Shown here: positions 5,243 through 23,496 of the stretch, one piece after another
Numbering within the stretch: the stretch's first letter is position 1
How the letters are laid out: each line of letters begins with the position of its first letter
Assembly: GCA_965208125.1 (NCBI GenBank)
Contig: OZ242320.1
Coordinates: 2,976,001-3,040,000 of the forward strand
Source: Candidatus Latescibacterota bacterium
GTDB lineage: Bacteria > Latescibacterota > UBA2968
DNA length: 64,000 nt
Direction of reading: 5' to 3'
Made by a program: the position numbers and the translations under genes
The notes under the pieces: model-generated
What the model was told of the DNA's origin: nothing
What the model saw: only the letters and a program-made list of their open reading frames with translations
Databases searched by the model: none

Positions 5243-6688
5243 TTATTTCACTAGACTCGCATATGCCTCTCGCCCTTGTCGGAAGAGGTCTTTGACTTCT
5301 TCGCGTTGCTGATCGGTGTTGTAGCGGCCATAGGTGTCGATCCATTTGAGCGCGTCTTCGATGCCGTTGAGAAAATACTGCGCGGATTCGTTGCGCTCGG
5401 CAGGCGGACGGCCGCAGGCAAAATAAACCGGGCTGCTGTGCGCGTAGATCGATTGGTCAAAGCTGTCGCGCTGATTGCCCCAGAGCCGGGCGGCGACCCA
5501 GCCGTCGCGGTCGATGTTGACCCGGTGGCGAATGGCGCCCTCGCGTTTGCCTTCGGGATAGTTTTCCCTGTGGATGATGTGTCCGTTCATCGCGATTTCG
5601 GCGCAGTGAATGGGGTAATAGGATGTGAATGTGGATTCTATGTCGAGCGAGCCGCCAGAGGGCAATTCAACTGTGGTGCCCATGGGGTGATCGTTTACGT
5701 TTAGATCAATGGCGGGACCATTGGTGATAAAGGTGTTGCCCGATTTCATACCGGTAATCCAGTTTTCGTAGGAGAACGCGCCTTTGGTATTGACATAGAC
5801 GCGGTTGTTGGAGCAGACGAACCAGTCGGTGCCGGTGGAGGCGGGTAAGGCGATACCGCAGTTGAGCAGTTTGTACCACAGGTCGTATTCGGGGTCCATC
5901 CAGAAGGGGTCGAAGAGGTTGAAGGCGTCCAGTTTGCCCAGTGCCGCGGCAATGGGGGCTTCCATGCCGCGACCGTTGTGACACCATATCACAATGCCGC
6001 CCTGATCGCGGGCTTCGTCGCAGCAAAAGCACAGGGGGGGATAGTCGGGGTCGAATTGCGCGGTGAGGATGTGGCCGCGGCTGACGGGTTGGATGAGGTT
6101 GCGGATGTTGAGGAACATGACGTGCCCATATCCGAACCCCCAGGGCGAGTTTTCGCCGTAGTGGCGGTTTTCTTCGCCGATGTCGAGGATGTGATGTGCG
6201 GTGGTAAATTCGTTCATCACGCCGATGGGATATTTGTTGCTGGCGTAGGGGAGTTGTCTTCTGTCGAGGACGCTTACGACGGTGACGTTATAGCCTTCCA
6301 CGCTGCAGTCAATGGCCAGTCGGTCGTCGGGACGGGTTTCTTTTTCGTCGTAGTGGATGTGTGTGTTGCCCGGGTACCAGTTGTTTTCCTGTGGGATATA
6401 CCAGCGGTTGAGGGTGATTTCGACGTCTTTGACGCCGTTTTCCGGCATTTCGACCACGGTGCGGACGGGTTCGTATTCCGTGCCGCGTTCGACCAATATG
6501 TCGGTGCGCCCGCGCGAGGCTTGAACTTCAAATTCGCCATCGCAGAAGAAGAAGGGGGTGCCGGGTCCGCGTTTGAGCATGGCGTCGCGCGGGTGACAAA
6601 AACGACCGTTGGCGGTCAGGACGTGTACTTTGGCGTTGATGTGTTCGCCTGTCGCACTGTCAATAATATGTCCGTGCAGGGTGCCCAT
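5243..6688 (-). CDS. CehA/McbA family PHP-like metallohydrolase
   Basis: VERGTEY, WYPGNTHIHY, GHV, WCHN, STGTDW, FITNGP and AHSSPVY motifs. Confidence 0.85.
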   Translation of the reverse strand: MGTLHGHIIDSATGEHINAKVHVLTANGRFCHPRDAMLKRGPGTPFFFCDGEFEVQASRGRTDILVERGTEYEPVRTVVEMPENGVKDVEITLNRWYIPQENNWYPGNTHIHYDEKETRPDDRLAIDCSVEGYNVTVVSVLDRRQLPYASNKYPIGVMNEFTTAHHILDIGEENRHYGENSPWGFGYGHVMFLNIRNLIQPVSRGHILTAQFDPDYPPLCFCCDEARDQGGIVIWCHNGRGMEAPIAAALGKLDAFNLFDPFWMDPEYDLWYKLLNCGIALPASTGTDWFVCSNNRVYVNTKGAFSYENWITGMKSGNTFITNGPAIDLNVNDHPMGTTVELPSGGSLDIESTFTSYYPIHCAEIAMNGHIIHRENYPEGKREGAIRHRVNIDRDGWVAARLWGNQRDSFDQSIYAHSSPVYFACGRPPAERNESAQYFLNGIEDALKWIDTYGRYNTDQQREEVKDLFRQGREAYASLVK

Positions 6689-13535: not shown

Positions 13536-15121
13536 GAGATGGGTCGGGGATTAAGGGATAAATCGCGCTGGAGAATAACGAGGGTTATGTCGTCGGTGCG
13601 CCGCGCTTTGCCAATAAAGGATTTGACATTGGCGACGAGGTCGGCAATCAGGTCTGTGGGTGTCTGATCTATGGATGCGCGTTCGAGGCAACGGACAAAT
13701 CGGTCGTCGTCAAAGAAGTTGCGTTTGGCATTTTGGGCTTCGACAACACCATCGGAGTAGAGCACGAGGCGATCACCGGGCGCGAGTGTTAAATGCTCAA
13801 CGCGATAAGGCGTTTGGGGGCGTACGAGTGCCGGGATTCCAAGAGGATAGCCCGTGATGTCGATAAATTGAGATTGATTGGATAGGTGGATAGGTGGACA
13901 GTGTCCTGCACTTGCAAGCGTGACTTCGCCTGTGGGTACGTCGAGTACGGCGATGCAGCAGGTAATAAATGTCGTGTGGTCAATTTGGCCTTCCAGGGAG
14001 TCATTAAGACCGTCGAGAATATCGGCTGGTGCAACGCGATTTTGACATTCATAGCGGAGTATTTCATTGAAACGCACGGCGGTCACGGCTGCTTCCATGG
14101 CTTTGCCAGAGACATCGGCAACGACGATGCCGAGTTTTGTTTTGTCTTTATCCAACCAGCGGTACGTATAGTAATCCCCGCCGACGCTGTTGGCGGGAAT
14201 ACACGTTCCGTCGAGTGTAAAACCCGGCAGGTCGGGACTGGATTGTGGCAATAGACCCATTTGCATGTCGTGTGCTGTTTGCAATTCATCGCGCATTTCC
14301 GAAAATTGTTGTTTGTAGCTTTCCCACTGTCGCGCTTCTTCGCAAAGGGTCTGGTTGTAGGCCGATGCAAAAATTCCGAGGGCGAGGGGTTGAAAGAGGG
14401 CGAAGACACAGAGTTGGGCTAAGGCATTGTCGATGATGCTATCGGTGAGAGCGACCGAGCCTGCAAGAATTCCGAGCGCGGTGAGTATAAGCGCACAGTG
14501 GCGAAAGAAGCCGTAGCGTTCTACGGCTTTGCGACTTTCGACATAGGCTTCGTCGATGTGTACCCCCCGGTCTGCTGCCAGAAGATAGATGTAGAAGCAT
14601 TTGACAACAAAAATGAGGCCGGGTAAAAATAAGAGGCAAGCTGCCGGAATGACGGCATAATAAATAATATTTTTGTCTTCTAAGAATCTTCCAATGTTTT
14701 CTGGTGCAGCGGGGATATCCCAGGTCGTTTCCCGGGCGACGACCTGTTTGAATGCATTGAGCAGGAATGCAAAGAAATCACTGTTCACAAAAACCAGTGC
14801 TACAATGAGGGCGAAGCCGAGAATAAAAAACAGGAAGATAAAAATGTTCATCGAGAAAAAACGGATGAAACGAATGATCTGTCCAAATAGATCTCGCATA
14901 GCGGGTTTTTCCCCTTGTTGCGCACGCAAGATCATGATGGCAAAGCCAGCATATAAGCTGCCCAGGAGCAAAGTGCCCGATAGCACACTCAGGATTATTG
15001 CCAAAAATGAAGCGAGAAACAAAATGGGCAGGTGACTTGCCCAGGAGGATATGCTGTCGTTGAGACAGCGAAGGTATTGGAGATTTGCCCGAACGGGGAT
15101 ATCGAGAGCCATAATAATCAA
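13532..15121 (-). CDS. Membrane-bound PP2C/SpoIIE (RsbU-like) phosphatase
   Basis: Multi-TM N-terminus; ELQTAHDMQMGLLP, VGGDYY, VADVSG, LYSDGVVE, DDIT. Confidence 0.92.
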   Translation of the reverse strand: MIIMALDIPVRANLQYLRCLNDSISSWASHLPILFLASFLAIILSVLSGTLLLGSLYAGFAIMILRAQQGEKPAMRDLFGQIIRFIRFFSMNIFIFLFFILGFALIVALVFVNSDFFAFLLNAFKQVVARETTWDIPAAPENIGRFLEDKNIIYYAVIPAACLLFLPGLIFVVKCFYIYLLAADRGVHIDEAYVESRKAVERYGFFRHCALILTALGILAGSVALTDSIIDNALAQLCVFALFQPLALGIFASAYNQTLCEEARQWESYKQQFSEMRDELQTAHDMQMGLLPQSSPDLPGFTLDGTCIPANSVGGDYYTYRWLDKDKTKLGIVVADVSGKAMEAAVTAVRFNEILRYECQNRVAPADILDGLNDSLEGQIDHTTFITCCIAVLDVPTGEVTLASAGHCPPIHLSNQSQFIDITGYPLGIPALVRPQTPYRVEHLTLAPGDRLVLYSDGVVEAQNAKRNFFDDDRFVRCLERASIDQTPTDLIADLVANVKSFIGKARRTDDITLVILQRDLSLNPRPIS

Positions 15122-16527
15122 GGTTTTTCTTTGTTGAGTTTGTATTTGCGGTACAGGTGGCGAAATTGGTCGTAGCTGAGTTTGAGTTGTTTGGCGGCTT
15201 CGCGCTGGTTCCAGGAGACTTTATTGAGAATGCGTCGCAATAGACTCAGTTCAAAGGATTGCACTTGTGATTCAAAGCCGTCGTTCAATTCGGGCGATTG
15301 GGGCGCTTGTTGAGAAACTTCGGGGGGCAGATCGTCGGATTCAATCTCAGTTCCACGGGCGACACAGGCTGCGCGTTCGGCCGCAAATTTGAGTTCGCGC
15401 ACATTGCCAGGCCAGCTATATGTCGTCAGGCGTTCTATTGCCGCATCGGAAAAATTGCGTTTTTGAAGGCCCGGTACTTCCTCGACGATTTGCGCGACAA
15501 AATAATCGGCTAATGCGGGAATGTCTTCGCGGCGTTCGCGCAACGGGGGCATGTGCAAGACTTCAAAGCGCAATCTGTCGTAGAGGTCCTGGCGGAATCG
15601 GCCTTCGGCAATTTCCGTTTCGAGATCGGTATTTGTGGCGGCTATAACGCGAACATCGACAAAGATGGGGGTCGCACTGCCCACGCGCTGAATTTCGCTG
15701 TATTCAATGGCACGCAATACGTTTTGCTGAAATTCGGGGGTGGTGTTGCCGATTTCATCGAGGAATAGGGTGCCGCCACTCGCGGCTTCAAATTTGCCCG
15801 TGCGGGCTTCTGTTGCGCCCGTATAAGCCCCTTTTTCGTGTCCAAAGAGTTCGCTTTCGAGCAATTGGTCGGCAATGGCGGCGCAATTGACTTTGACAAA
15901 GGGACGGTCTTTGCGGTCACTGCCATAGTGGATGGCAGCGGCGACGAGTTCTTTGCCCGTTCCGGGTTCGCCTGTGATGAGCGCGGGCCGGGGGATGGGG
16001 GCTACGGTTTGCGCTCGCTGGAGAATTTGCTGGAGTTTGGGGCTGGAGCCGATGATTTGATAGCGCTTGCCAAATTCGTCCCGGTAGAATTGGTTTTCGC
16101 GTCCCAGGTCCTGAACTTCTGCCCGCAGTTGGGCATTTTCCCTGAGTGCTTGATAAACGCGGTCGAGTTTTTCAAGGCTGAGTTCGATTTTGTCTTCGAT
16201 ATAAAAGTCTTTTTCAATAAAGTCTGTTGCGCCCAATCGCAATGCAGCTACGGCAGTATCTATTGTGCCCTGTCCGGTGAGCATAATGACGGGCAGATCG
16301 GGAACCGATTCGAGCATTTGTGGCAAAATTTCGAGACCATCGGGTTCCTCGGGTCCGTAATCGAGGTCGAGAATGGCCAGGCCAATCTGATTGGGATGCT
16401 GTTGCAGATATGTTAGCGCTTCGCGCCCGGTCGAGAAGGCATGGACTTTGCGCGTGTCGTCTCGCAGGCTTCGAATCAGCATGTCGAGGACTTCTATCTG
16501 GTCGTCAGCAACGATAATTTCGGTCAT
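15118..16527 (-). CDS. Sigma-54 enhancer-binding response regulator (REC + AAA+ + HTH), PspF-like
   Basis: REC domain (ADD, ILDL, T, K); GEPGTGKE, ESELFGHEKGAYTGA; PspF-like DRLRFEV and C-terminal LSYDQFRHLYRKY. Confidence 0.92.
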   Translation of the reverse strand: MTEIIVADDQIEVLDMLIRSLRDDTRKVHAFSTGREALTYLQQHPNQIGLAILDLDYGPEEPDGLEILPQMLESVPDLPVIMLTGQGTIDTAVAALRLGATDFIEKDFYIEDKIELSLEKLDRVYQALRENAQLRAEVQDLGRENQFYRDEFGKRYQIIGSSPKLQQILQRAQTVAPIPRPALITGEPGTGKELVAAAIHYGSDRKDRPFVKVNCAAIADQLLESELFGHEKGAYTGATEARTGKFEAASGGTLFLDEIGNTTPEFQQNVLRAIEYSEIQRVGSATPIFVDVRVIAATNTDLETEIAEGRFRQDLYDRLRFEVLHMPPLRERREDIPALADYFVAQIVEEVPGLQKRNFSDAAIERLTTYSWPGNVRELKFAAERAACVARGTEIESDDLPPEVSQQAPQSPELNDGFESQVQSFELSLLRRILNKVSWNQREAAKQLKLSYDQFRHLYRKYKLNKEKP

Positions 16528-16549
16528 GGGAGAAATATTGAAAAGGGTC

Positions 16550-17809
16550 TTATTGAATAAATTCTTCTGCTATAGGATCGCGTGAGGTATCGGGTACGCT
16601 GTGCTGCAGTCCAATGCTGTCTTGTTGTGTTGAGACTTCAAAATCGACGGGCAGGTCAATGCGAAAAACCGCACCTGCGCCCGGGCGGCTGATCACGCGC
16701 AGCGTGCCGCGGTGTGCCGCTGCAATGCGAGAGCAGATACTCAGCCCATATCCATTGCCCCTTTCCCGCGTTGAAAATCCGGGGTCAAATATGCGGGTTT
16801 GCAAATTTTCGGGAATGCCGGGACCATTGTCTTCCACTTCAATATATACCGAACTGCGCTCTGTATCGGCGCCGACCTGTACTGTTACCACGCCATTATT
16901 TTCAACGGCTTCGATGGCGTTGAGAGTCAGGTTTGTGACGGCTTCAGATAACATGCCAGCGTCTGCTTTTACCTGAGGTACATGAGGTTCGGCGGCAAAG
17001 ATGAGTTCTTTGTCCCCTGCTCGTGCAGAGAGTCTGTGGGTCATTTTTTCAATGAGTTGGGACACATCGACCAGCGCGGGATTCATAGTGTCTTGTTTCA
17101 TAGACCGCAAATAGGCAACCCATTGGTTGTAGATGTGTTCTTGTTCGTACGCGATGTCTTTTAGATCATCCAGGCCGTGTGTATCTGGCGGTAAATTGCG
17201 TATGGCGCGGCGCATTCGGCTGCCGGAGAGACCCATCAGATTTTTGATGCGGTGGCCGTGCGTGTAGAGGCTTTCATAGACTTGGGCACGTCCCAGGTCT
17301 ATGAGCTCGAGAGAGAGTCGTGCGAGAATGCCCGGTGCTCTAACACCAAATTCTTCGGTGATGCTTTCGTATTCGCGTTCCATTTGTGCTGGGCTCATGT
17401 GGTGAAAGAGCAATCGAGCGAGATTTCCATAGGGCAACATGTAATCGGGTTCGAGGTGTATGGCGATTTTAAACTCGCCAAGTGCCGATAAAATTTGCCC
17501 ATTTTGCATGAGCAAAACGCCCAGGTTGTTATGCCCGGGCGCGAAGAGGGGATCGGCTTCTAAACCCCGGCGGTAAACGGCAATCGCTCGAGATGCGTTT
17601 TCAGGAAAGTCATCGAGCAGGCTGCCCAACAAAAAACAGACGCGGTCAATGAGGGCTTGTTCACCACCCCGGTTATCAGACAAAATGTATTCGAGGTGTT
17701 CAACCGCTTTTTTGTAGTCGTCTGAACCCGGTGTTGCCCCGCGAGCGTGTTGCAGCGCCATTTGGAAACGGGCTTCCAGATCGGGGATTATGTTCAGGGT
17801 GTTGGACAT
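16550..17809 (-). CDS. Soluble TPR-containing histidine kinase
   Basis: TPR motifs (HNNLGVLL, YGNLARL); H-box HRIKNLMG; N, G1, F and G2 boxes (NLTLNAIEA, DNGPGI, IFDPGFST, GNGYGL); no TM segment. Confidence 0.88.
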   Translation of the reverse strand: MSNTLNIIPDLEARFQMALQHARGATPGSDDYKKAVEHLEYILSDNRGGEQALIDRVCFLLGSLLDDFPENASRAIAVYRRGLEADPLFAPGHNNLGVLLMQNGQILSALGEFKIAIHLEPDYMLPYGNLARLLFHHMSPAQMEREYESITEEFGVRAPGILARLSLELIDLGRAQVYESLYTHGHRIKNLMGLSGSRMRRAIRNLPPDTHGLDDLKDIAYEQEHIYNQWVAYLRSMKQDTMNPALVDVSQLIEKMTHRLSARAGDKELIFAAEPHVPQVKADAGMLSEAVTNLTLNAIEAVENNGVVTVQVGADTERSSVYIEVEDNGPGIPENLQTRIFDPGFSTRERGNGYGLSICSRIAAAHRGTLRVISRPGAGAVFRIDLPVDFEVSTQQDSIGLQHSVPDTSRDPIAEEFIQ

Positions 17810-17831
17810 GGTTGTACTTATGCGTTGTAGC

Positions 17832-19418
17832 CTACGCCTCTGCGTCTTCTGTGGTATCGGGTTTACCGTTTTCCCCGGATGTTTGTTCGCCGTTCATTTT
17901 GCCCAAAAATTCGGGTAATTCAAGCCCTGCCAGACGCGCCAGATCGTGCATGGGCGGTATGGCACCCATGAGGCGTTGTCCCAGGTTGGACATGCCACTG
18001 TCGCCATTGCCGCTGTCCCAGACCATTACTTTGTCGATGGGTAAGTTGCTAATGGCTTCTGCCTGGATGTTGGCGACATCGGTGAGGCGTTCGATGATCA
18101 GAAAGGCCGCTGCTGCCTGGTCGTTGCTGCCACAGGCTTCGACGAGTTGTCTGTATCCTTCGGCTTTGGCGTTGAGAATGGCCTGAGTCCCCTGAGCTTC
18201 GGCCTGTTTTTGCGCGAGAATGGCTGCGGCTTCACCTTCGGCAATAAGTCGTCGCTGTTCTTTTTCGGCTTCTGCCTGAACGACCTGGCGTTGTTTTTCG
18301 GCTTCTGCCTGAACGACGATTTCTGCACGCAGGCGCGCTTCCTCGCGCAGTGCTCGGGCTTCTTCGGCTGCTTTTTCCGCGGTTTCCTGGGCGACGCGAA
18401 TAGCGCCGTCCGTGGCTTTGGTCGCTTCTTCTGATTTTCGGCGCGCGTCTTCTTCAGCAACGCGTTGTCCCGCGCGATAGCCCGCTGTTTTTGCTTCTGC
18501 TTCTGTTTCTGACTGTACGGCTTCTGCTTCGAGAGCCGCGACATTCTGGCGTTTGTCTCGCCCGGCCTCTGCTTCGCCGATTTCAGCTTCTGATTCGAGT
18601 GCGGCAACTTGTCGTCGTCTGTCTCGCGCAGCTTCTGATTCGCCGATTTCAGCTTCTGATTCGAGTGCTGCGACCTGTCGTCGTCTGTTTCGCGCAGCTT
18701 CGGCTTCGCCAACTTCGGCTTCTGATTCGGCTGCGGCGACGTCCCGACGCCGGTCGCGTGCGCGTTCGGCCACGCCAACCTGCCCGTGTCGTTCTTGTTC
18801 GGCCACGTCGATAGATGCCTGGTTTACGGCTTCGGCTGCTGCTTTTTGGCCGATGGCTTTGATGTAGCCGCTTTCGTCGTCGAGGTCTTTGATGTTGACG
18901 TTGATAACGGCCAGACCAATTTTTTCCATTTCAGTGGAGACGGCATCATTTACTTTGGTCATGAATGCCTGTCGGTCCTGATTGATTTCTTCAATTTGCA
19001 TGGTTGCAATGACTGCGCGCATCTGGCCGAGGATGATGTCCTGTGCCTGGCTCTGAATTTGATCGCGGGACAGGCCCAGGAGGCGGATGGCCGCGTTTTG
19101 CATGACGCCGGGCTGATTGGAGACAGCCGCTGTGACTGTGGTGGGCACGGATACGCGGATGTTTTCCTGTGAAAGCGCGTTGTCCAGGTCGATGGGTACG
19201 ACAAAGGGTTCGAGGTCGAGGTATTCGTAGTCCTGCAATAGGGGCAGGACAAAAGCTGCGCCACCGTGTACACATTTTGCGGCTGTGCCTCCTCCTGTTT
19301 TGCCGTATATGACGAGAATTTTGTTGGATGGGCAGCGCTTGTAACGCGATATGAATGTGAGGAATAGCAATAATACAACGGCTGCCAGGATGACGATGAG
19401 AATGAATTCGTTGGGCAT
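17832..19418 (-). CDS. Flotillin (SPFH + flotillin coiled coil)
   Basis: N-terminal TM, RYKRCPSNKILVIYGK, SPFH core, AEA-rich coil; RBS AAGGAGG before MPNEF. Confidence 0.95.
   Translation of the reverse strand: MPNEFILIVILAAVVLLLFLTFISRYKRCPSNKILVIYGKTGGGTAAKCVHGGAAFVLPLLQDYEYLDLEPFVVPIDLDNALSQENIRVSVPTTVTAAVSNQPGVMQNAAIRLLGLSRDQIQSQAQDIILGQMRAVIATMQIEEINQDRQAFMTKVNDAVSTEMEKIGLAVINVNIKDLDDESGYIKAIGQKAAAEAVNQASIDVAEQERHGQVGVAERARDRRRDVAAAESEAEVGEAEAARNRRRQVAALESEAEIGESEAARDRRRQVAALESEAEIGEAEAGRDKRQNVAALEAEAVQSETEAEAKTAGYRAGQRVAEEDARRKSEEATKATDGAIRVAQETAEKAAEEARALREEARLRAEIVVQAEAEKQRQVVQAEAEKEQRRLIAEGEAAAILAQKQAEAQGTQAILNAKAEGYRQLVEACGSNDQAAAAFLIIERLTDVANIQAEAISNLPIDKVMVWDSGNGDSGMSNLGQRLMGAIPPMHDLARLAGLELPEFLGKMNGEQTSGENGKPDTTEDAEA
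18507..18770 (-). repeat. Four tandem 66-bp (22-aa) repeats within flotillin
   Basis: AERARDRRRDVAAAESEAEVGE / AEAARNRRRQVAALESEAEIGE / SEAARDRRRQVAALESEAEIGE / AEAGRDKRQNVAALEAEAVQSE. Confidence 0.9.
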
Positions 19419-19434
19419 TGTACCTCCTTTAAGT

Positions 19435-20040
19435 TCAGAATTGAATAGGTTCGACTTCAACAGTGGTTATGTCGAGTGTTCGCAGTACGCGAATCGGCGT
19501 CTTGTTCTGGATGGGTTGCCCGTCTTTGCTGCGCGCAGAGATGTAGTTGACAGCCCCGCTTTCCATCACGCGAATTTGACCGGCGCCATTTTCGGGAATG
19601 TCGATATAGACTTCGCCTTCATTGCCGATGCAGGACGATAGGTTTCGGTTATGCGATTCGGAGAGTTGTTGCACTTTGTAGAAGAAGTACGCAACAAGGA
19701 CCATCCCCGCGCCGCCCCATACGAGGCCGCGAAGGACCGAATCTTCGGTTGAATGTCCCGAGTCGAGATAGAGCGCGCCCGCCCATCCAAAGAGCATGCC
19801 AAAGGCTATTACAGAGCGCAGTGAGAGCAGTTGAAAAGTGGCAGTGCCGTGATCATAAAGACTGTTATCGACATCTGGCCCCGCATCATTGGCATTGAAG
19901 TCGTCGGCAAGGCCATCTGAGGAATCGCCCAGGCCGATGAGTGTTGTGATAAATTGCCAGAGAAACAAAAGGGTGAAGAAGACAGCACAGCCATAGAATG
20001 CCTGATTGAGAGGCGCGAGTTCTGACCACCATGCCTGCAT
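19435..20040 (-). CDS. NfeD-like (YuaF/YqiJ-type) membrane protein, flotillin partner
   Basis: Three TM segments plus C-terminal OB fold (IGNEGEVYIDIP..GQIRV); directly upstream of flotillin. Confidence 0.88.
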   Translation of the reverse strand: MQAWWSELAPLNQAFYGCAVFFTLLFLWQFITTLIGLGDSSDGLADDFNANDAGPDVDNSLYDHGTATFQLLSLRSVIAFGMLFGWAGALYLDSGHSTEDSVLRGLVWGGAGMVLVAYFFYKVQQLSESHNRNLSSCIGNEGEVYIDIPENGAGQIRVMESGAVNYISARSKDGQPIQNKTPIRVLRTLDITTVEVEPIQF

Positions 20041-20140
20041 ATTAACCTCCAGAAATCGATTGCGCGTTCCATCAACTGATCTTTATGTTCCTAAATTTGT
20101 CCATGCAAGGGGCGAAAAGCAAGAGTTATTTCTTATCCGG

Positions 20141-20731
20141 TCATCCGGGTTGTAAACCGAGTTTGCGAAATTCGCTTTTGAGTTGGCGACGGGCGCGGCA
20201 CAGCCAGGTTTTCACGGTTCCAAGCGGAACGCGAAGCGCCTGTGTGATTTCTTCGTAGGACCAGTCCATGACATAGCGCAGCCACATGGCTTTGCGATAG
20301 CGTTCGGGCAAGTTTTGAATGCTTTTGTGGACCAATTGTATGCGTTCGCGTTTTTCGACTATTTGATCAGGTAGCGCGCCGGGTATGAGGTCGCGAAGGA
20401 CGTTGCGAACCATTTCGGGGTCTTCGGTTTGATAGACCCAGTTTTGCCGAACTTGTTGTGAGCGCAGGTGCGAGCGATAGACGTTGAGGGCAATTTGTGT
20501 GAGCCAGGTCGAAAATGCTGCCCGGCCTTTGAATGTGTGAAGCGAGCGATAGGCGCGAAAAAATGTGTCTTGCATCAGGTCGTCAATGGTGTCGCGATCC
20601 GAGATGCGCTGTGCGAGGGTGCCGTAGATCTGACTTTGATATTTGTGGTAGAGCGTTTCAAATGCCCGGCAGTCGCCCGAGAGGGATGCGCGAATCAGGT
20701 TTTGATCCTGTGTTTTCACTTTTTTCTCCAT
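20141..20731 (-). CDS. ECF sigma factor (SigW/SigE-like)
   Basis: DDLMQDTFFRAYRSLHTF..FSTWLTQIALN; LPERYR..SYEEI..VPLGTVKTWLCRAR. Confidence 0.93.
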   Translation of the reverse strand: MEKKVKTQDQNLIRASLSGDCRAFETLYHKYQSQIYGTLAQRISDRDTIDDLMQDTFFRAYRSLHTFKGRAAFSTWLTQIALNVYRSHLRSQQVRQNWVYQTEDPEMVRNVLRDLIPGALPDQIVEKRERIQLVHKSIQNLPERYRKAMWLRYVMDWSYEEITQALRVPLGTVKTWLCRARRQLKSEFRKLGLQPG

Positions 20732-20789
20732 TCGTTAAGATAATTCGCTTATTGCTATTCTTTTGTTTGTGACAAGACGGATTTTTCCG

Positions 20790-20963
20790 TCAGTCTTCCC
20801 TACTGACCAACCGCCAACCGATCGCAATAAATCCAAGGGCGATGACAAGTCCGATCAGGTGAAAGATAGACTCCAATAGAGAGCCAAGAAATGGGAAGAG
20901 AACCTTGATGGTGATAATGCCGCCGATGATAATGAGTGCGATGCCGATGAGTTTTGCCAACAT
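20790..20963 (-). CDS. Small two-TM membrane protein (57 aa), missing from the ORF track
   Basis: Manual translation MLAKLIGIALIIIGGIITIKVLFPFLGSLLESIFHLIGLVIALGFIAIGWRLVSRED*; RBS AAAGGA; fills the operon gap. Confidence 0.8.
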   Translation of the reverse strand: MLAKLIGIALIIIGGIITIKVLFPFLGSLLESIFHLIGLVIALGFIAIGWRLVSRED

Positions 20964-20994
20964 GGGATGTCCTTTTTATTTTTGAGGTTGTCCG

Positions 20995-21348
20995 TCAATC
21001 CGAGATGGTTTGCGGAGGTGGAGATGGTGTAGCGACTGAGAGACGCTCGAGTTTGTCGTCGTTGGTGATGACGATGTCTTGAAGGTCGATGAGGCGTTTT
21101 TCAAGTTCTTTTACGCGTTTTGACAGTTCTTCAGATTGGTTGTCGTTTTTTGTCGATCTTTTTCCCTTGTTATTAAAATCTGGGATGAATGTGAATGAGA
21201 GAGTAAAAAAGGCAATGATGGCTATAGCGGCCCAGGCCGCCACCAGGCCGAGACCACCTCCAAATGTTGGGTTTTCGATATAGACAATTGTGCCGGCTGC
21301 AAGAATAATCAGACTGATGCCAACCGTGATTGTAAGAAAGATGCGCAT
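20995..21348 (-). CDS. PspB-like protein (2 TM + C-terminal coiled coil), paralog 3
   Basis: C-terminus ELEKRLIDLQDIVITNDDK shared with the two upstream paralogs; RBS GGAGGA. Confidence 0.75.
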   Translation of the reverse strand: MRIFLTITVGISLIILAAGTIVYIENPTFGGGLGLVAAWAAIAIIAFFTLSFTFIPDFNNKGKRSTKNDNQSEELSKRVKELEKRLIDLQDIVITNDDKLERLSVATPSPPPQTISD

Positions 21349-21371
21349 GGTGTCCTCCCTGTTAGTTTCAG

Positions 21372-21593
21372 TTAGCGAGAAATAGGCGATCGGTCGAATT
21401 TTTCGTCAATGGTGATGAGGATGTCCTGAATGTCCGTAAGCCTGCGGTCGAGTTCGTCCATTCGTTCATTCAAGCGTTTTTCTGCATCGCTGGGGATAGA
21501 CCCTTTTGTGCGGCGATCAATGTATTTGTGTACTGCTGATACAATGGCTGATACGAGGATGATCATCGATATGCCAATAAAAAAATTAGTCAT
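21372..21593 (-). CDS. PspB-like protein (1 TM + coiled coil), paralog 2
   Basis: GSIPSDAEKRLNERMDELDRRLTDIQDILITIDEK; RBS GGAGG. Confidence 0.78.
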   Translation of the reverse strand: MTNFFIGISMIILVSAIVSAVHKYIDRRTKGSIPSDAEKRLNERMDELDRRLTDIQDILITIDEKFDRSPISR

Positions 21594-21604
21594 GGTACCC
21601 CTCC

Positions 21605-21805
21605 CTATTTTCTGCTGAGTTTTTCGTCAATAGTGATCATGACGTCCTGAATGTCGGTGAGTCTGCGGTCGAGTTCGTCCATTCGTTCATTCAAGCGTTC
21701 TTCCGCATCGCTGGGGATGGAGCCTCTGGTGCGTTGTTCAACGTATTTGTATGCCGCTGATGCGAGAATGATTATCGCTACCATGATTCCAATTTCAAAC
21801 ATCAT
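21605..21805 (-). CDS. PspB-like protein (1 TM + coiled coil), paralog 1
   Basis: GSIPSDAEERLNERMDELDRRLTDIQDVMITIDEK; RBS GGAGG. Confidence 0.78.
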   Translation of the reverse strand: MMFEIGIMVAIIILASAAYKYVEQRTRGSIPSDAEERLNERMDELDRRLTDIQDVMITIDEKLSRK

Positions 21806-21821
21806 TTAGCCCTCCCACACA

Positions 21822-22493
21822 TTAGAGTTCATCCACGGGTCTCGCGCGGTATTTTTCATCCCAGCGTTCGATTTCCGGAAAATGATAAACGACCAGTCCC
21901 GAATCTGAGATTCGCATTTCCGCATGACCACTTATGGTTAATTCTCGCAGGATTTCTTCAGTTTTTTCAACTGTTATTCTGGTGTCCATAGCGGCTTCTG
22001 TTACGGTGAGGCTGCCCCCTTTTTCCCGGGCGAGACGGAGTATGCGATGCTGATTTTTGGCATGTGCTTTTTTGTCTCCCGATCTTTTGACCCGGCGACC
22101 TGCCCACCATATAAGTTGAGAGAAAACGATTATACAGAGGCCAGCACTGAGTTCTTCGTGCCTGAATGGATTTGTGCCATCGATCCAGGGAGGATGTTCT
22201 ACCAGTGTAATGAGTACGAGCATGAGGCCGCTAAATCCCATAAGTACAGCCATTCCTATTAAACCATAAGCAAAGAGATAACGCATGGCACAGCTCCCAT
22301 CGGTGGCGAGGTCAGAGAGGCGGTCGGGCACGCGCTTGAATGAATTGGTTGCGGTTTGGAAATCACTGCTCGCGCTGTGAACGCGCGCCTCCCAGTTTCC
22401 CTTCCATTTCTTTTTTATTTTTCGCTCTGCGTTGTTGACCGCGCGGTCAATTTTGCTGGCGATTTCATCGGCGAGTTTTTCCAGGTCACGCAT
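21822..22493 (-). CDS. PspA-coupled membrane protein (N-terminal coil, 2 TM, C-terminal winged-helix-like domain)
   Basis: Overlaps the pspA stop; C-terminus ILRLAREKGGSLTVTEAAM..EEILREL..GLVVYHFPE. Confidence 0.75.
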   Translation of the reverse strand: MRDLEKLADEIASKIDRAVNNAERKIKKKWKGNWEARVHSASSDFQTATNSFKRVPDRLSDLATDGSCAMRYLFAYGLIGMAVLMGFSGLMLVLITLVEHPPWIDGTNPFRHEELSAGLCIIVFSQLIWWAGRRVKRSGDKKAHAKNQHRILRLAREKGGSLTVTEAAMDTRITVEKTEEILRELTISGHAEMRISDSGLVVYHFPEIERWDEKYRARPVDEL

Positions 22494-23163
22494 CTTTTTG
22501 TCCCATTTTCTTTTTTAGGGCACTGAGTTCGTCTTCTACTGTGCTTTTGCGCTCGAGTTTGGAAAATTCTTCTTCCAGAGAGGGGTCAGCACTCGCCATC
22601 TCTTGATGGGCTTCAGCTTCGGCTTCTTCTGTTTCGATACGCTGGCGGAATCGTTCAAAGCTCGAAAAAGCGTCTTCACCTACTCCTGAGAGGCCTCTGG
22701 CGATTTGCTTGCGGGCTTCGGCTGCACGCCGGCGGGCAATCAGGGTGCCCTGGCGGGTGCGGGCTTCGTCGAGTTTGGCTTTGAGTTGGGTGAGTTGTTG
22801 TTTGAGTTGGGACGAAGTTTTACGGCTTTCTTCGAGGGCTATTTCAAGGTCGTGCGTGGCTTCCTGATTTGCAGCTTTGCGCTCGAGCGCGCGGCGAGCA
22901 AGGTCGTCTTCGCCAGCTTCAACAGCCATTTCGGCTTTTTTCTGCCAGGCTTCGATTTGATCCTGTTTTTCGAGATATTGTCTTTCCAGGCGTTTTTCAT
23001 TGGCAACAGCCGTGCCGACCGAGGCAGTGGCTTTGTTGACGGCTTCTTCCATTTCCAGAATCATCTGACGGATCATTTTTTCCGGGTCTTCTGCGCGGGT
23101 AATCAGGTCGTTGACGTTGGCTTTGACGATGTCGGCCATTCTATAAAAAATTCCGCGTGCCAT
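22486..23163 (-). CDS. pspA: PspA/IM30 (ESCRT-III superfamily) protein
   Basis: GIFYRMADIVKANVNDLITRAEDPEKMIRQMILEME, GEDDLARRAL, VEDELSALKKKM. Confidence 0.96.
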   Translation of the reverse strand: MARGIFYRMADIVKANVNDLITRAEDPEKMIRQMILEMEEAVNKATASVGTAVANEKRLERQYLEKQDQIEAWQKKAEMAVEAGEDDLARRALERKAANQEATHDLEIALEESRKTSSQLKQQLTQLKAKLDEARTRQGTLIARRRAAEARKQIARGLSGVGEDAFSSFERFRQRIETEEAEAEAHQEMASADPSLEEEFSKLERKSTVEDELSALKKKMGQKDA

Positions 23164-23231
23164 GATCTTCTCCTTTCACAAGGTGCTGCATTTATGAGGA
23201 TTCTGATGTTTTTTGTTGTCGCACTCTTTTT

Positions 23232-23248
23232 ATGCAAAATCTATGCCA
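23232..23248 (-). promoter_or_regulatory. Sigma-54 (-24/-12) promoter of the pspA operon
   Basis: Minus strand TGGCAT-AGATT-TTGCAT, about 70 nt upstream of the pspA start. Confidence 0.88.
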
Positions 23249-23304
23249 GGAGCGAGATATGATATTAAATGTTGTTTTTCATATACATAGATATTTTTGT
23301 GAAG

Positions 23305-23360
23305 TGGGGGAAATCGATAAAGTTGGTGAAAATTCCCATGTGTTCTGGCGAAAGAGACCA
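23305..23360. promoter_or_regulatory. Putative PspF-type upstream activator sequences
   Basis: TGGTGAAAATTCCCA (23324-38), TGGCGAAAGAGACCA (23346-60) and a degenerate TGGGGGAAATCGATA (23305-19), at enhancer distance from the sigma-54 site. Confidence 0.6.
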
Positions 23361-23496
23361 AATTTACCATTTTTTAATCCGGGTATTTTTAGAGGGTCAT
23401 ATCTTGTCTTTTTTTTCTAAAAGGTCTATTATCTATCGGTTTGTCGCAAATAGGTCTCCAATATTATCACTTTTCACTTTATATACTGAATTTTTT

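Follow-up and report, generated by a model that had tools for sequence, protein, structure and literature searches.

A PspF-type activator with a receiver domain and a soluble TPR histidine kinase encoded behind pspA in a Latescibacterota bacterium

PspF is the textbook enhancer-binding protein without a regulatory domain, controlled in trans by PspA. How is the Psp (phage-shock protein) response controlled where a PspF-like activator carries a receiver domain (REC) and its gene adjoins that of a histidine kinase? The question is raised by a 64,000-nucleotide stretch of Candidatus Latescibacterota bacterium (assembly GCA_965208125.1, contig OZ242320.1, positions 2,976,001 to 3,040,000 of the forward strand; in the following, the window). 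Its minus strand holds 13 co-directional open reading frames (ORFs) with short gaps or overlaps, pspA being the first and thiI the last (Table 1). The original prediction, made from the DNA letters, placed the activator and the kinase inside the operon that they would control, and saw in them a regulator rewired from PspA inhibition to phosphorylation. The pair indeed lies within the pspA cluster, downstream of pspA and on the same strand, and pspA has a sigma54 promoter. We consider it likely that the locus encodes a two-component Psp circuit, in which a soluble tetratricopeptide repeat (TPR) kinase acts on a REC-bearing PspF-type activator, and the activator on the sigma54 promoter of pspA.

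In this circuit, the kinase would autophosphorylate on H186 and pass the phosphate to D54 of the activator receiver. The phosphorylated activator would then assemble on two TGG-N9-CCA dyads, located about 90–112 nt upstream of the pspA sigma54 promoter, and spend ATP to open this promoter. The output would be pspA, a winged-helix membrane protein and PspB-like genes, and probably, by read-through, also the kinase and the activator. The gene packing suggests that the regulators are probably co-transcribed with their targets, which would give a positive feedback. Because the activator has neither the W56 nor the L52 of PspF, PspA control, if any, would have to enter elsewhere than at the W56 patch, most plausibly at the TPR domain of the kinase. 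Candidates for the TPR input are PspA itself, the tails of the PspB-like proteins and the winged-helix membrane protein, all of which are conserved in the unit.

The activator and the PspF superclade

The activator consists of a Response_reg domain (residues 4–111, E 3.8e-17), a long helical linker, a Sigma54_activat domain (PF00158, residues 158–321, E 4.6e-65, 218.8 bits), an AAA_lid_14 domain (residues 330–413) and a helix-turn-helix (HTH), the three named domains being Pfam matches. Its Walker A (GEPGTGKE) and Walker B (LFLDEI) motifs are those of a bacterial enhancer-binding protein (bEBP). The motifs on which the original prediction was built, IHYGS (residues 199–203), RKDRP (residues 205–209), GAYTGA, DRLRFEV and LSYDQFR, are all present, as is the N-terminal REC. 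The sigma54 loop reads GAFTGA in 75 of 116 full-length relatives and GAYTGA in 39; GAYTGA is a minority state rather than a family trait, and we attach no functional meaning to it.

Judged by phylogeny, where raw scores do not decide, the activator belongs to the PspF superclade. For the comparison, 13 bEBPs of Escherichia coli K-12 were translated from the K-12 record, in which only pspF is named by annotation; the other twelve carry names that we assigned to them from their presumed map positions. In a careful tree of 51 rows (these 13, 24 paralogs from the same genome and 14 members of the activator family), E. coli PspF joins the activator family at 100/100. The PspF branch is long in this tree (1.07). 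Under denser sampling it shortens to about 0.4, and the grouping holds. A FastTree of 170 rows, including 119 single-domain representatives from a library of 1.84 billion proteins, contains a 40-row clade (Shimodaira–Hasegawa-like support 99) that divides in two. Clade A (support 99) has nine rows, among them E. coli PspF, all about 315–377 aa long and without an N-terminal domain. Clade B (support 85) comprises 31 rows, most of them of REC length, with the activator among them. A third, careful tree of 78 rows, to which metagenome sequences were added, recovers clade A at 100/99, clade B at 83/77 and both together at 100/99. A tree uniting the family with NtrC, AtoC, ZraR and GlrR was rejected by the approximately unbiased (AU) test (log-likelihood difference 70.1, p-AU 1.5e-5). 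The affiliation to PspF that was originally expected, with clustering among NtrC and AtoC as its counterpart, is thereby borne out.

The signature columns point the same way. Clades A and B share EY in the loop-2 region, and DRLxF where Y/HRLNV stands in other bEBPs; the remaining E. coli bEBPs and two paralogs of the same genome have neither. The HTH recognition helix, L[ST]Y[DH]QFR, is common to E. coli PspF and both clades, and is absent from the 12 other E. coli bEBPs and from the four own paralogs that were compared. The activator is moreover encoded beside a pspA gene with a sigma54 promoter and upstream sites, as a PspF in the functional sense would be. Automatic names of the JGI label some clade-B proteins “PspF”; this label and “NtrC family” each miss half of the picture.

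Docking patch, receiver and kinase

In E. coli PspF, residues Y51, L52 and W56 form the patch on which PspA docks, and a single exchange, Y51C, L52C or W56C, is enough to escape inhibition (PMC3791423; here and below, papers are cited for the available part of their text). In the alignment, RKDRP of the activator lies under RWQGP of E. coli PspF, with K206 at the position of W56, as had been read from the letters. The patch residues of the activator are Y201, G202 and K206, and the classic YLW combination is absent. W56 is found in all nine clade-A rows, in the context [YF]-L/H-S..R-W, vs none of the 31 clade-B rows. Among the 116 full-length relatives, the W56-equivalent is K in 62, A in 24, R in 14, S in nine, Q in four, G, V and E in one each, and never W. 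The L52-equivalent is G in 103 of them, and the Y51-equivalent is Y in 109. The activator therefore lacks one part of the patch, W56 and L52, and keeps the other, Y51.

The kept tyrosine brings up a dual control, in which the activator would depend on phosphorylation and yet be restrained directly by PspA through a surface other than W56, with the kinase as a second input. Y51 is the main PspA docking residue (PMC3791423), a second PspA-binding site on PspF has been reported (PMC6003685), and PspA is always encoded in the same unit. However, two of the three residues whose single exchange frees E. coli PspF are replaced throughout most or all of the family, and W56 is invariant in the REC-less clade only. 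We regard a dual control as improbable, and favor the two-component circuit described above.

The second departure from classic PspF is the REC itself, which is carried by all full-length family members among the relatives listed. Its five active-site residues, D8, D9, D54, T84 and K106, do not vary among the 116 full-length relatives, which makes it a receiver of the response-regulator type. In clade A, none of the eight representatives has a Pfam REC match. The 17 representatives of clade B comprise eight with REC at E<=1e-8, three short ones, and six with N-termini of REC length and no Pfam REC match at this threshold.

Which of the two forms came first? The outgroup rows nearly all have N-termini of REC length or longer. 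Classic PspF has a large sister clade with REC, and N-terminal domains also occur in the outgroups; it is therefore more likely that REC is ancestral, and that classic PspF is a derivative that lost REC and gained W56. The direction is drawn by parsimony; on the 78-row tree, at least four changes are required to explain which rows have an N-terminal domain and which have none, with 11 metagenome rows of the B type unscored because many are cut by contig ends. The word “rewired” in the original prediction would thus have to be turned around. Together with the REC-bearing sister clade and its ties to pspA, the confinement of W56 to the REC-less clade offers an explanation of how, in evolution, an AAA+ activator came under control in trans. 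One could go further, tentatively, and suppose that the ancestral Psp circuit was a triad of kinase, REC-bearing PspF and pspA, widespread outside Proteobacteria, in which PspA, or its PspB-like or winged-helix membrane partners, reported the state of the membrane to the TPR domain of a soluble kinase, and that the enterobacterial W56 clamp was a later short-circuit at the time of REC loss. We hold this to be possible rather than probable. If true, the negative-feedback contact would have moved from the kinase to the activator, and the W56 patch would be a datable innovation.

The kinase has TPR matches and a HATPase_c domain (residues 283–388) in Pfam. No hydrophobic segment rises above threshold, which indicates that there is no transmembrane (TM) helix. 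Its AlphaFold model (mean predicted local distance difference test score, pLDDT, 81.3) has seven TPR-like helices, a long helix with H186, a return helix and a catalytic and ATP-binding (CA) domain. The NtrB model aligns to the kinase from residue 184. The residues expected of a histidine kinase, namely the H-box histidine H186 and, in the N, G1 and G2 boxes, N293/N297, D327-G329-G331 and G351-G353-G355, are the same in all 32 aligned relatives. The description of the neighbor as a TPR kinase without TM helix was accurate.

With 419 aa, the kinase is shorter here than most of its relatives, which have about 530–565 aa and more N-terminal TPR repeats; because of the flotillin gene upstream, there is no space for an earlier start.

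The receiver could nevertheless be a pseudo-receiver, or the kinase mainly a phosphatase or a scaffold, so that the activator would be constitutively competent and gated by protein contacts, with TPR or PspA. The six clade-B representatives with N-termini of REC length but no REC match, together with the three short ones, would fit such a state, as would the kinase, in which Pfam finds no HisKA domain. The invariance of the five receiver residues in the activator's own family, and of H186 and the ATP-binding boxes in the kinase, makes it quite unlikely, and argues for phosphotransfer within the two-component circuit.

Promoter, boxes and the unit in relatives

The boxes that had been proposed at 23305–23360 are real as sequence: they are the two dyads, 112 and 90 nt upstream of the promoter, and we predict that they are the enhancer, or upstream activating sequence (UAS). 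In 40 of 41 loci, the window included, a GG-N10-GC sigma54 promoter with at most two mismatches was found at a distance of 48–119 nt upstream of pspA. A strict tandem pair of dyads, 19–24 bp apart, stands upstream of the promoter in 28 of the 41 loci, vs a shuffle mean of 0.005 loci, and ten further loci have one strict box. In one locus (L066) the contig ends 43 nt upstream of the promoter, short of the box region. The box sequence drifts with the lineage, from TGGT..CACCA in near relatives to TGGC..GCCA in family f4. Genome-wide, there are six tandem pairs, and only the pair at pspA is followed by a sigma54 promoter.

A scan of the genome for single boxes found them at four of 53 exact sigma54 sites, vs about 1.4 expected by rough arithmetic, which is a lead. 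A second pspA paralogue (2809843–2810579 of the genome contig, outside the window) has an exact sigma54 promoter and, 90 nt upstream, a TGG-N9-CCA box, which is thus as far away as the proximal box of the window pspA. This box falls within a hairpin that has a T run behind it, and may be no more than a terminator stem. A gene for a 145-aa protein (4850600–4851109, also outside the window), Hsp20/alpha-crystallin-like by our reading of its sequence, without a search, again has an exact sigma54 promoter and a TGG-N9-CCA box 75 nt upstream. In the intergenic region between pspF and pspA of E. coli K-12 (5920–5947 of the extracted locus), two copies of ATTCGC[CT]A are 20 bp apart. The boxes of the window end in TTTCGCCA and TTTCACCA, 22 bp apart, and a likeness to the E. 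coli copies would fit the shared recognition helix.

The conservation of the unit was followed in 40 loci from relatives. Twenty were fetched via the kinase (30 other loci of that scan matched the CA domain only and were set aside), and 20 more via the activator, at 52–70% identity, chosen from a scan of the phylum for long contigs. These loci are kin, and their counts measure conservation, not independent events. In all 40, the genes for PspA, the winged-helix membrane protein, a PspB-like protein, the kinase and the activator follow each other in this order, except that in L067 the contig end cuts the unit after the kinase. One locus (L098) has the five genes with gaps of 48, 35, 3 and 27 nt, and no terminator-like site in these gaps.

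The remaining genes of the window cluster are less widespread. Only nearer relatives have the ECF (extracytoplasmic function) sigma factor, NfeD, flotillin, PP2C and thiI genes; among the 20 loci fetched via the activator, ECF occurs in six, flotillin in four and PP2C in one. The segment 17832..20963, with the 2-TM peptide, ECF sigma, NfeD-like and flotillin genes, is absent from 14 of these 20, the distant loci of family f4. As these genes are restricted to near relatives, their distribution indicates that they are insertions into, or additions to, an older five-gene unit.

Is the association of the three proteins limited to this one family? We scanned metagenome contigs with a clade-B alignment headed by P0265, a protein about 48% identical to the activator, and classed the resulting 80 loci by the columns aligned to E. 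coli PspF. Clade-B-like activators (EY, no W) were found in 23 loci, one of them cut before the loop, and pspA in 11 of the 23. Clade-A-like activators (W56) were found in eight loci. In four of these pspA is present, always divergent and 172–646 nt upstream, which is the classic arrangement. The other 49 loci encode other bEBPs (QE or QD), and none has pspA. In the subclade of P0265, the gene order is TPR kinase, REC activator, pspA, with pspA 9–63 nt behind the activator in seven loci and 1.4–2.0 kb behind it in two. Pfam matches in L124 run from TPR and HATPase_c, through Response_reg, Sigma54_activat and HTH_8, to PspA_IM30 and an ECF sigma factor. In another of the metagenome loci (L134), a sigma54 promoter with one mismatch lies between activator and pspA. 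Because the P0265 subclade has the triad of kinase, REC-bearing PspF and pspA in a different gene order, the comparison dates this triad as older than the Latescibacterota family. The ECF sigma gene behind pspA in L124 is a recurrence, in an unrelated subclade locus, of a gene that is also present in the window.

Several observations weigh against the two-component circuit or the affiliation on which it builds, besides the missing HisKA match and the six clade-B N-termini mentioned above. By raw score, the NCBIfam model ntrC (347.4 bits, including REC) exceeds pspF (343.9 bits, AAA+ and HTH parts alone), and both remain below their equivalog cut-offs (TIGR01818, 558.6 bits; TIGR02974, 443.55 bits). 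On the AAA+ core, ZraR is slightly ahead of PspF (247.3 vs 241.3 bits), and in the ranking of PDB structures, Aquifex NtrC-type proteins and ZraR stand above PspF. The support for a monophyletic REC clade is moderate in all three trees in which it was read (85, 89 in a quick version of the 78-row tree, and 83/77). In the window, the activator gene is 6.6 kb behind the pspA promoter with the ECF sigma gene in between, and internal promoters are therefore likely. In L111, the sole miss of the 41 loci, no sigma54 promoter was found upstream of pspA. In the P0265 subclade, L124 has none within one mismatch near the genes, and the short contigs have no convincing one within two mismatches. Lastly, 12 of the 23 clade-B-like metagenome loci are without pspA. 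Most of them have short flanks, but in L129 and L136 pspA is missing even though the contig extends for about 8 kb to one side.

The host genome is a single 5.75-Mb contig with rpoN, 25 bEBP ORFs and three PspA paralogues. That the pair is an ordinary NtrC-family system with another target, the pspA promoter being served by another of the 25 activators, might be read from this number, from the exact sigma54 promoters of the second pspA paralogue and the Hsp20-like gene, and from NtrC, AtoC and NifA model scores as high as those of PspF, but it is very unlikely given the linkage in 40 of 40 loci down to 52% identity and in a second subclade with another gene order, the absence of pspA from all 49 loci of non-PspF-type activators, the change of the box sequence together with the activator lineage, and the AU test.

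Known systems and the rest of the locus

Compared with the PspF-PspA-PspBC system of E. coli, the locus has the same type of AAA+ core and HTH, within one superclade (100/99), small PspB-like membrane proteins behind pspA, and a sigma54 promoter with two upstream sites before pspA, like the two UASs described at E. coli pspA (PMC3709507). It differs in its REC and cognate kinase, in lacking W56 and L52, in that no PspC was detected, and in the position of the regulator, co-directional and downstream of pspA here and divergent in E. coli. A PspA-family effector under a kinase/response-regulator pair of the same locus is known from LiaRS-LiaIH of Bacillus subtilis (PMC11237479; preprint of Popp et al.). 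LiaR, however, combines REC with a DNA-binding HTH domain and works on a promoter of the sigma70 type, and LiaS, which LiaF restrains, is a membrane kinase, whereas here the regulator is a PspF-type sigma54 AAA+ activator and the kinase is soluble with TPRs. NtrC1, ZraR and other NtrC-type proteins share the REC-AAA+-HTH architecture and the long helical linker, and are the best PDB sequence matches, yet the activator falls outside their clade, and its signature columns and recognition helix are PspF-like, not Y/HRLNV. In Desulfovibrio vulgaris, the predicted PspF DVU2989 is another sigma54 activator from outside the enterobacteria that was assigned to a phage-shock operon, but it is of the classic form, being listed without an N-terminal domain (PMC4641369).

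Surveys of the Psp response have, in their available text, given such regulators little room. One excluded PspF and two-component systems from detailed analysis; the PspF variants it noted are NtrC-like factors with ACT or PAS, and the two-component systems it discussed are of the REC-HTH type (PMC11237479). Another took it as probable that, outside Enterobacteriaceae, PspF-like proteins have nothing to do with the Psp response (Popp et al. preprint). Our literature search, with subscription journals and supplements outside its reach, found no description of a REC-bearing PspF clade or of a TPR kinase in Psp control. By contrast, PspF has a large sister clade that bears REC, and the link of this clade to pspA is seen in at least two deep lineages, which differ in gene order. 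The circuit would predict a new signaling route, from membrane stress over a soluble TPR kinase to sigma54.

Table 1. Features of the pspA cluster and their positions in the window
Feature	Position	Strand	Remarks
Tandem TGG-N9-CCA dyads	23346–23360 and 23324–23338 (span 23324..23360)	−	22 bp apart; predicted enhancer (UAS)
sigma54 −24/−12 promoter, TGGCATAGATTTTGCA	23233..23248	−	no other exact match in the window; pspA ATG about 70 nt downstream
pspA (PspA/IM30, 225 aa)	22486..23163	−	first gene behind the sigma54 promoter; Pfam PF04012
Conserved membrane protein, 223 aa	21822..22493	−	N-terminal helix, two TM helices, C-terminal winged-helix-like domain
Three PspB-like small membrane proteins	21605–21805, 21372–21593, 20995–21348 (span 20995..21805)	−	N-terminal TM each
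2-TM peptide, 57 aa	20790–20963	−	
ECF sigma factor	20141–20731	−	
NfeD-like protein, 201 aa	19435–20040	−	weak Pfam match, E 0.014
Flotillin/SPFH protein	17832–19460	−	
Soluble TPR histidine kinase (P0002, 419 aa)	16550..17809	−	TPR and HATPase_c
Kinase, TPR-like helices	17399–17800	−	residues 4–137
Kinase, dimerization and phosphotransfer (DHp) hairpin	17099–17392	−	residues 140–237; H186 codon at 17252–17254
Kinase, CA domain	16646–17077	−	
REC-AAA+-HTH sigma54 activator (P0001, 469 aa)	15118..16527	−	Response_reg, Sigma54_activat and AAA_lid_14
Activator, REC	16195–16518	−	D54 codon at 16366–16368
Activator, AAA+ and lid	15289–16056	−	
Activator, W56-equivalent loop, IHYGSDRKDRPF	15898–15933	−	K206 at 15910–15912
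Activator, GAYTGA	15814–15831	−	residues 233–238
Activator, DRLRFEV	15559–15579	−	residues 317–323
Activator, HTH motif LSYDQFR	15160–15180	−	residues 450–456
Membrane PP2C/SpoIIE phosphatase, 529 aa	13532..15121	−	five predicted TM; near relatives only

PspA is a member of its Pfam family (PF04012, 157.5 bits vs a gathering score of 33.9), although it stays below the TIGR02977 equivalog cut-off (178.5 vs 242.95 bits). The 223-aa membrane protein is encoded directly behind pspA in all 40 loci. The architecture given in Table 1 comes from its structure model (pLDDT 71). Foldseek found no match for this model in the PDB at E<=0.001. Above this threshold, its weak matches are mostly winged helices of MarR, IclR and ArsR, and an atlas search gave only clusters without a name (best score 0.89), besides a weak lead to MarR. 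One further match, to the ESCRT-II winged helix 3cuq_A (E 8e-3, root-mean-square deviation 1.5 over 60 columns, 28% identity), is intriguing beside the ESCRT-III-like PspA, and is likewise a lead.

The three tandem PspB-like paralogues have the tail motif RLTDIQD..I..DEK in common; in more distant relatives, the protein is encoded once or twice. They resemble PspB in architecture, with an N-terminal TM helix and a helical tail, and hhalign aligns them weakly with E. coli PspB (probability 25.9% over 27 columns, at matching positions). No Pfam match was obtained for them even at E<=5.

Two of the gene overlaps in the cluster are those of the PP2C phosphatase gene with the stop of the activator gene (4 nt), and of the NfeD-like gene with the start of the flotillin gene (26 nt). 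No anti-sigma factor was recognized beside the ECF sigma gene. The 201-aa protein encoded behind it was considered for this role and rejected, as it looks NfeD-like.

Contigs from four RNA libraries of three studies, from sponge and coral metagenomes, are 90–99% alike to the window over the whole cluster (15118–23400). In three runs they cover all of the 30 bins, and in the fourth 29, and one 12-kb contig spans the cluster from activator to pspA. Parts of the stretch occur in 24 RNA runs, but in no run as much as half of the sampled words. Contigs of this kind can demonstrate neither a transcript nor its start or strand, and may contain DNA, and we did not use them as support. Their origin suggests that relatives live in sponge and coral hosts.

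Among the other bEBPs of the genome, nine close paralogues (L013–L016, L018, L019 and L021–L023) form a tight clade (100/100), most of them in ORFs of about 1060–1090 aa with very long N-terminal regions. Another ORF (3866504–3868306, represented by L011 and L026) contains two sigma54 AAA+ domains in one frame of 587 aa.

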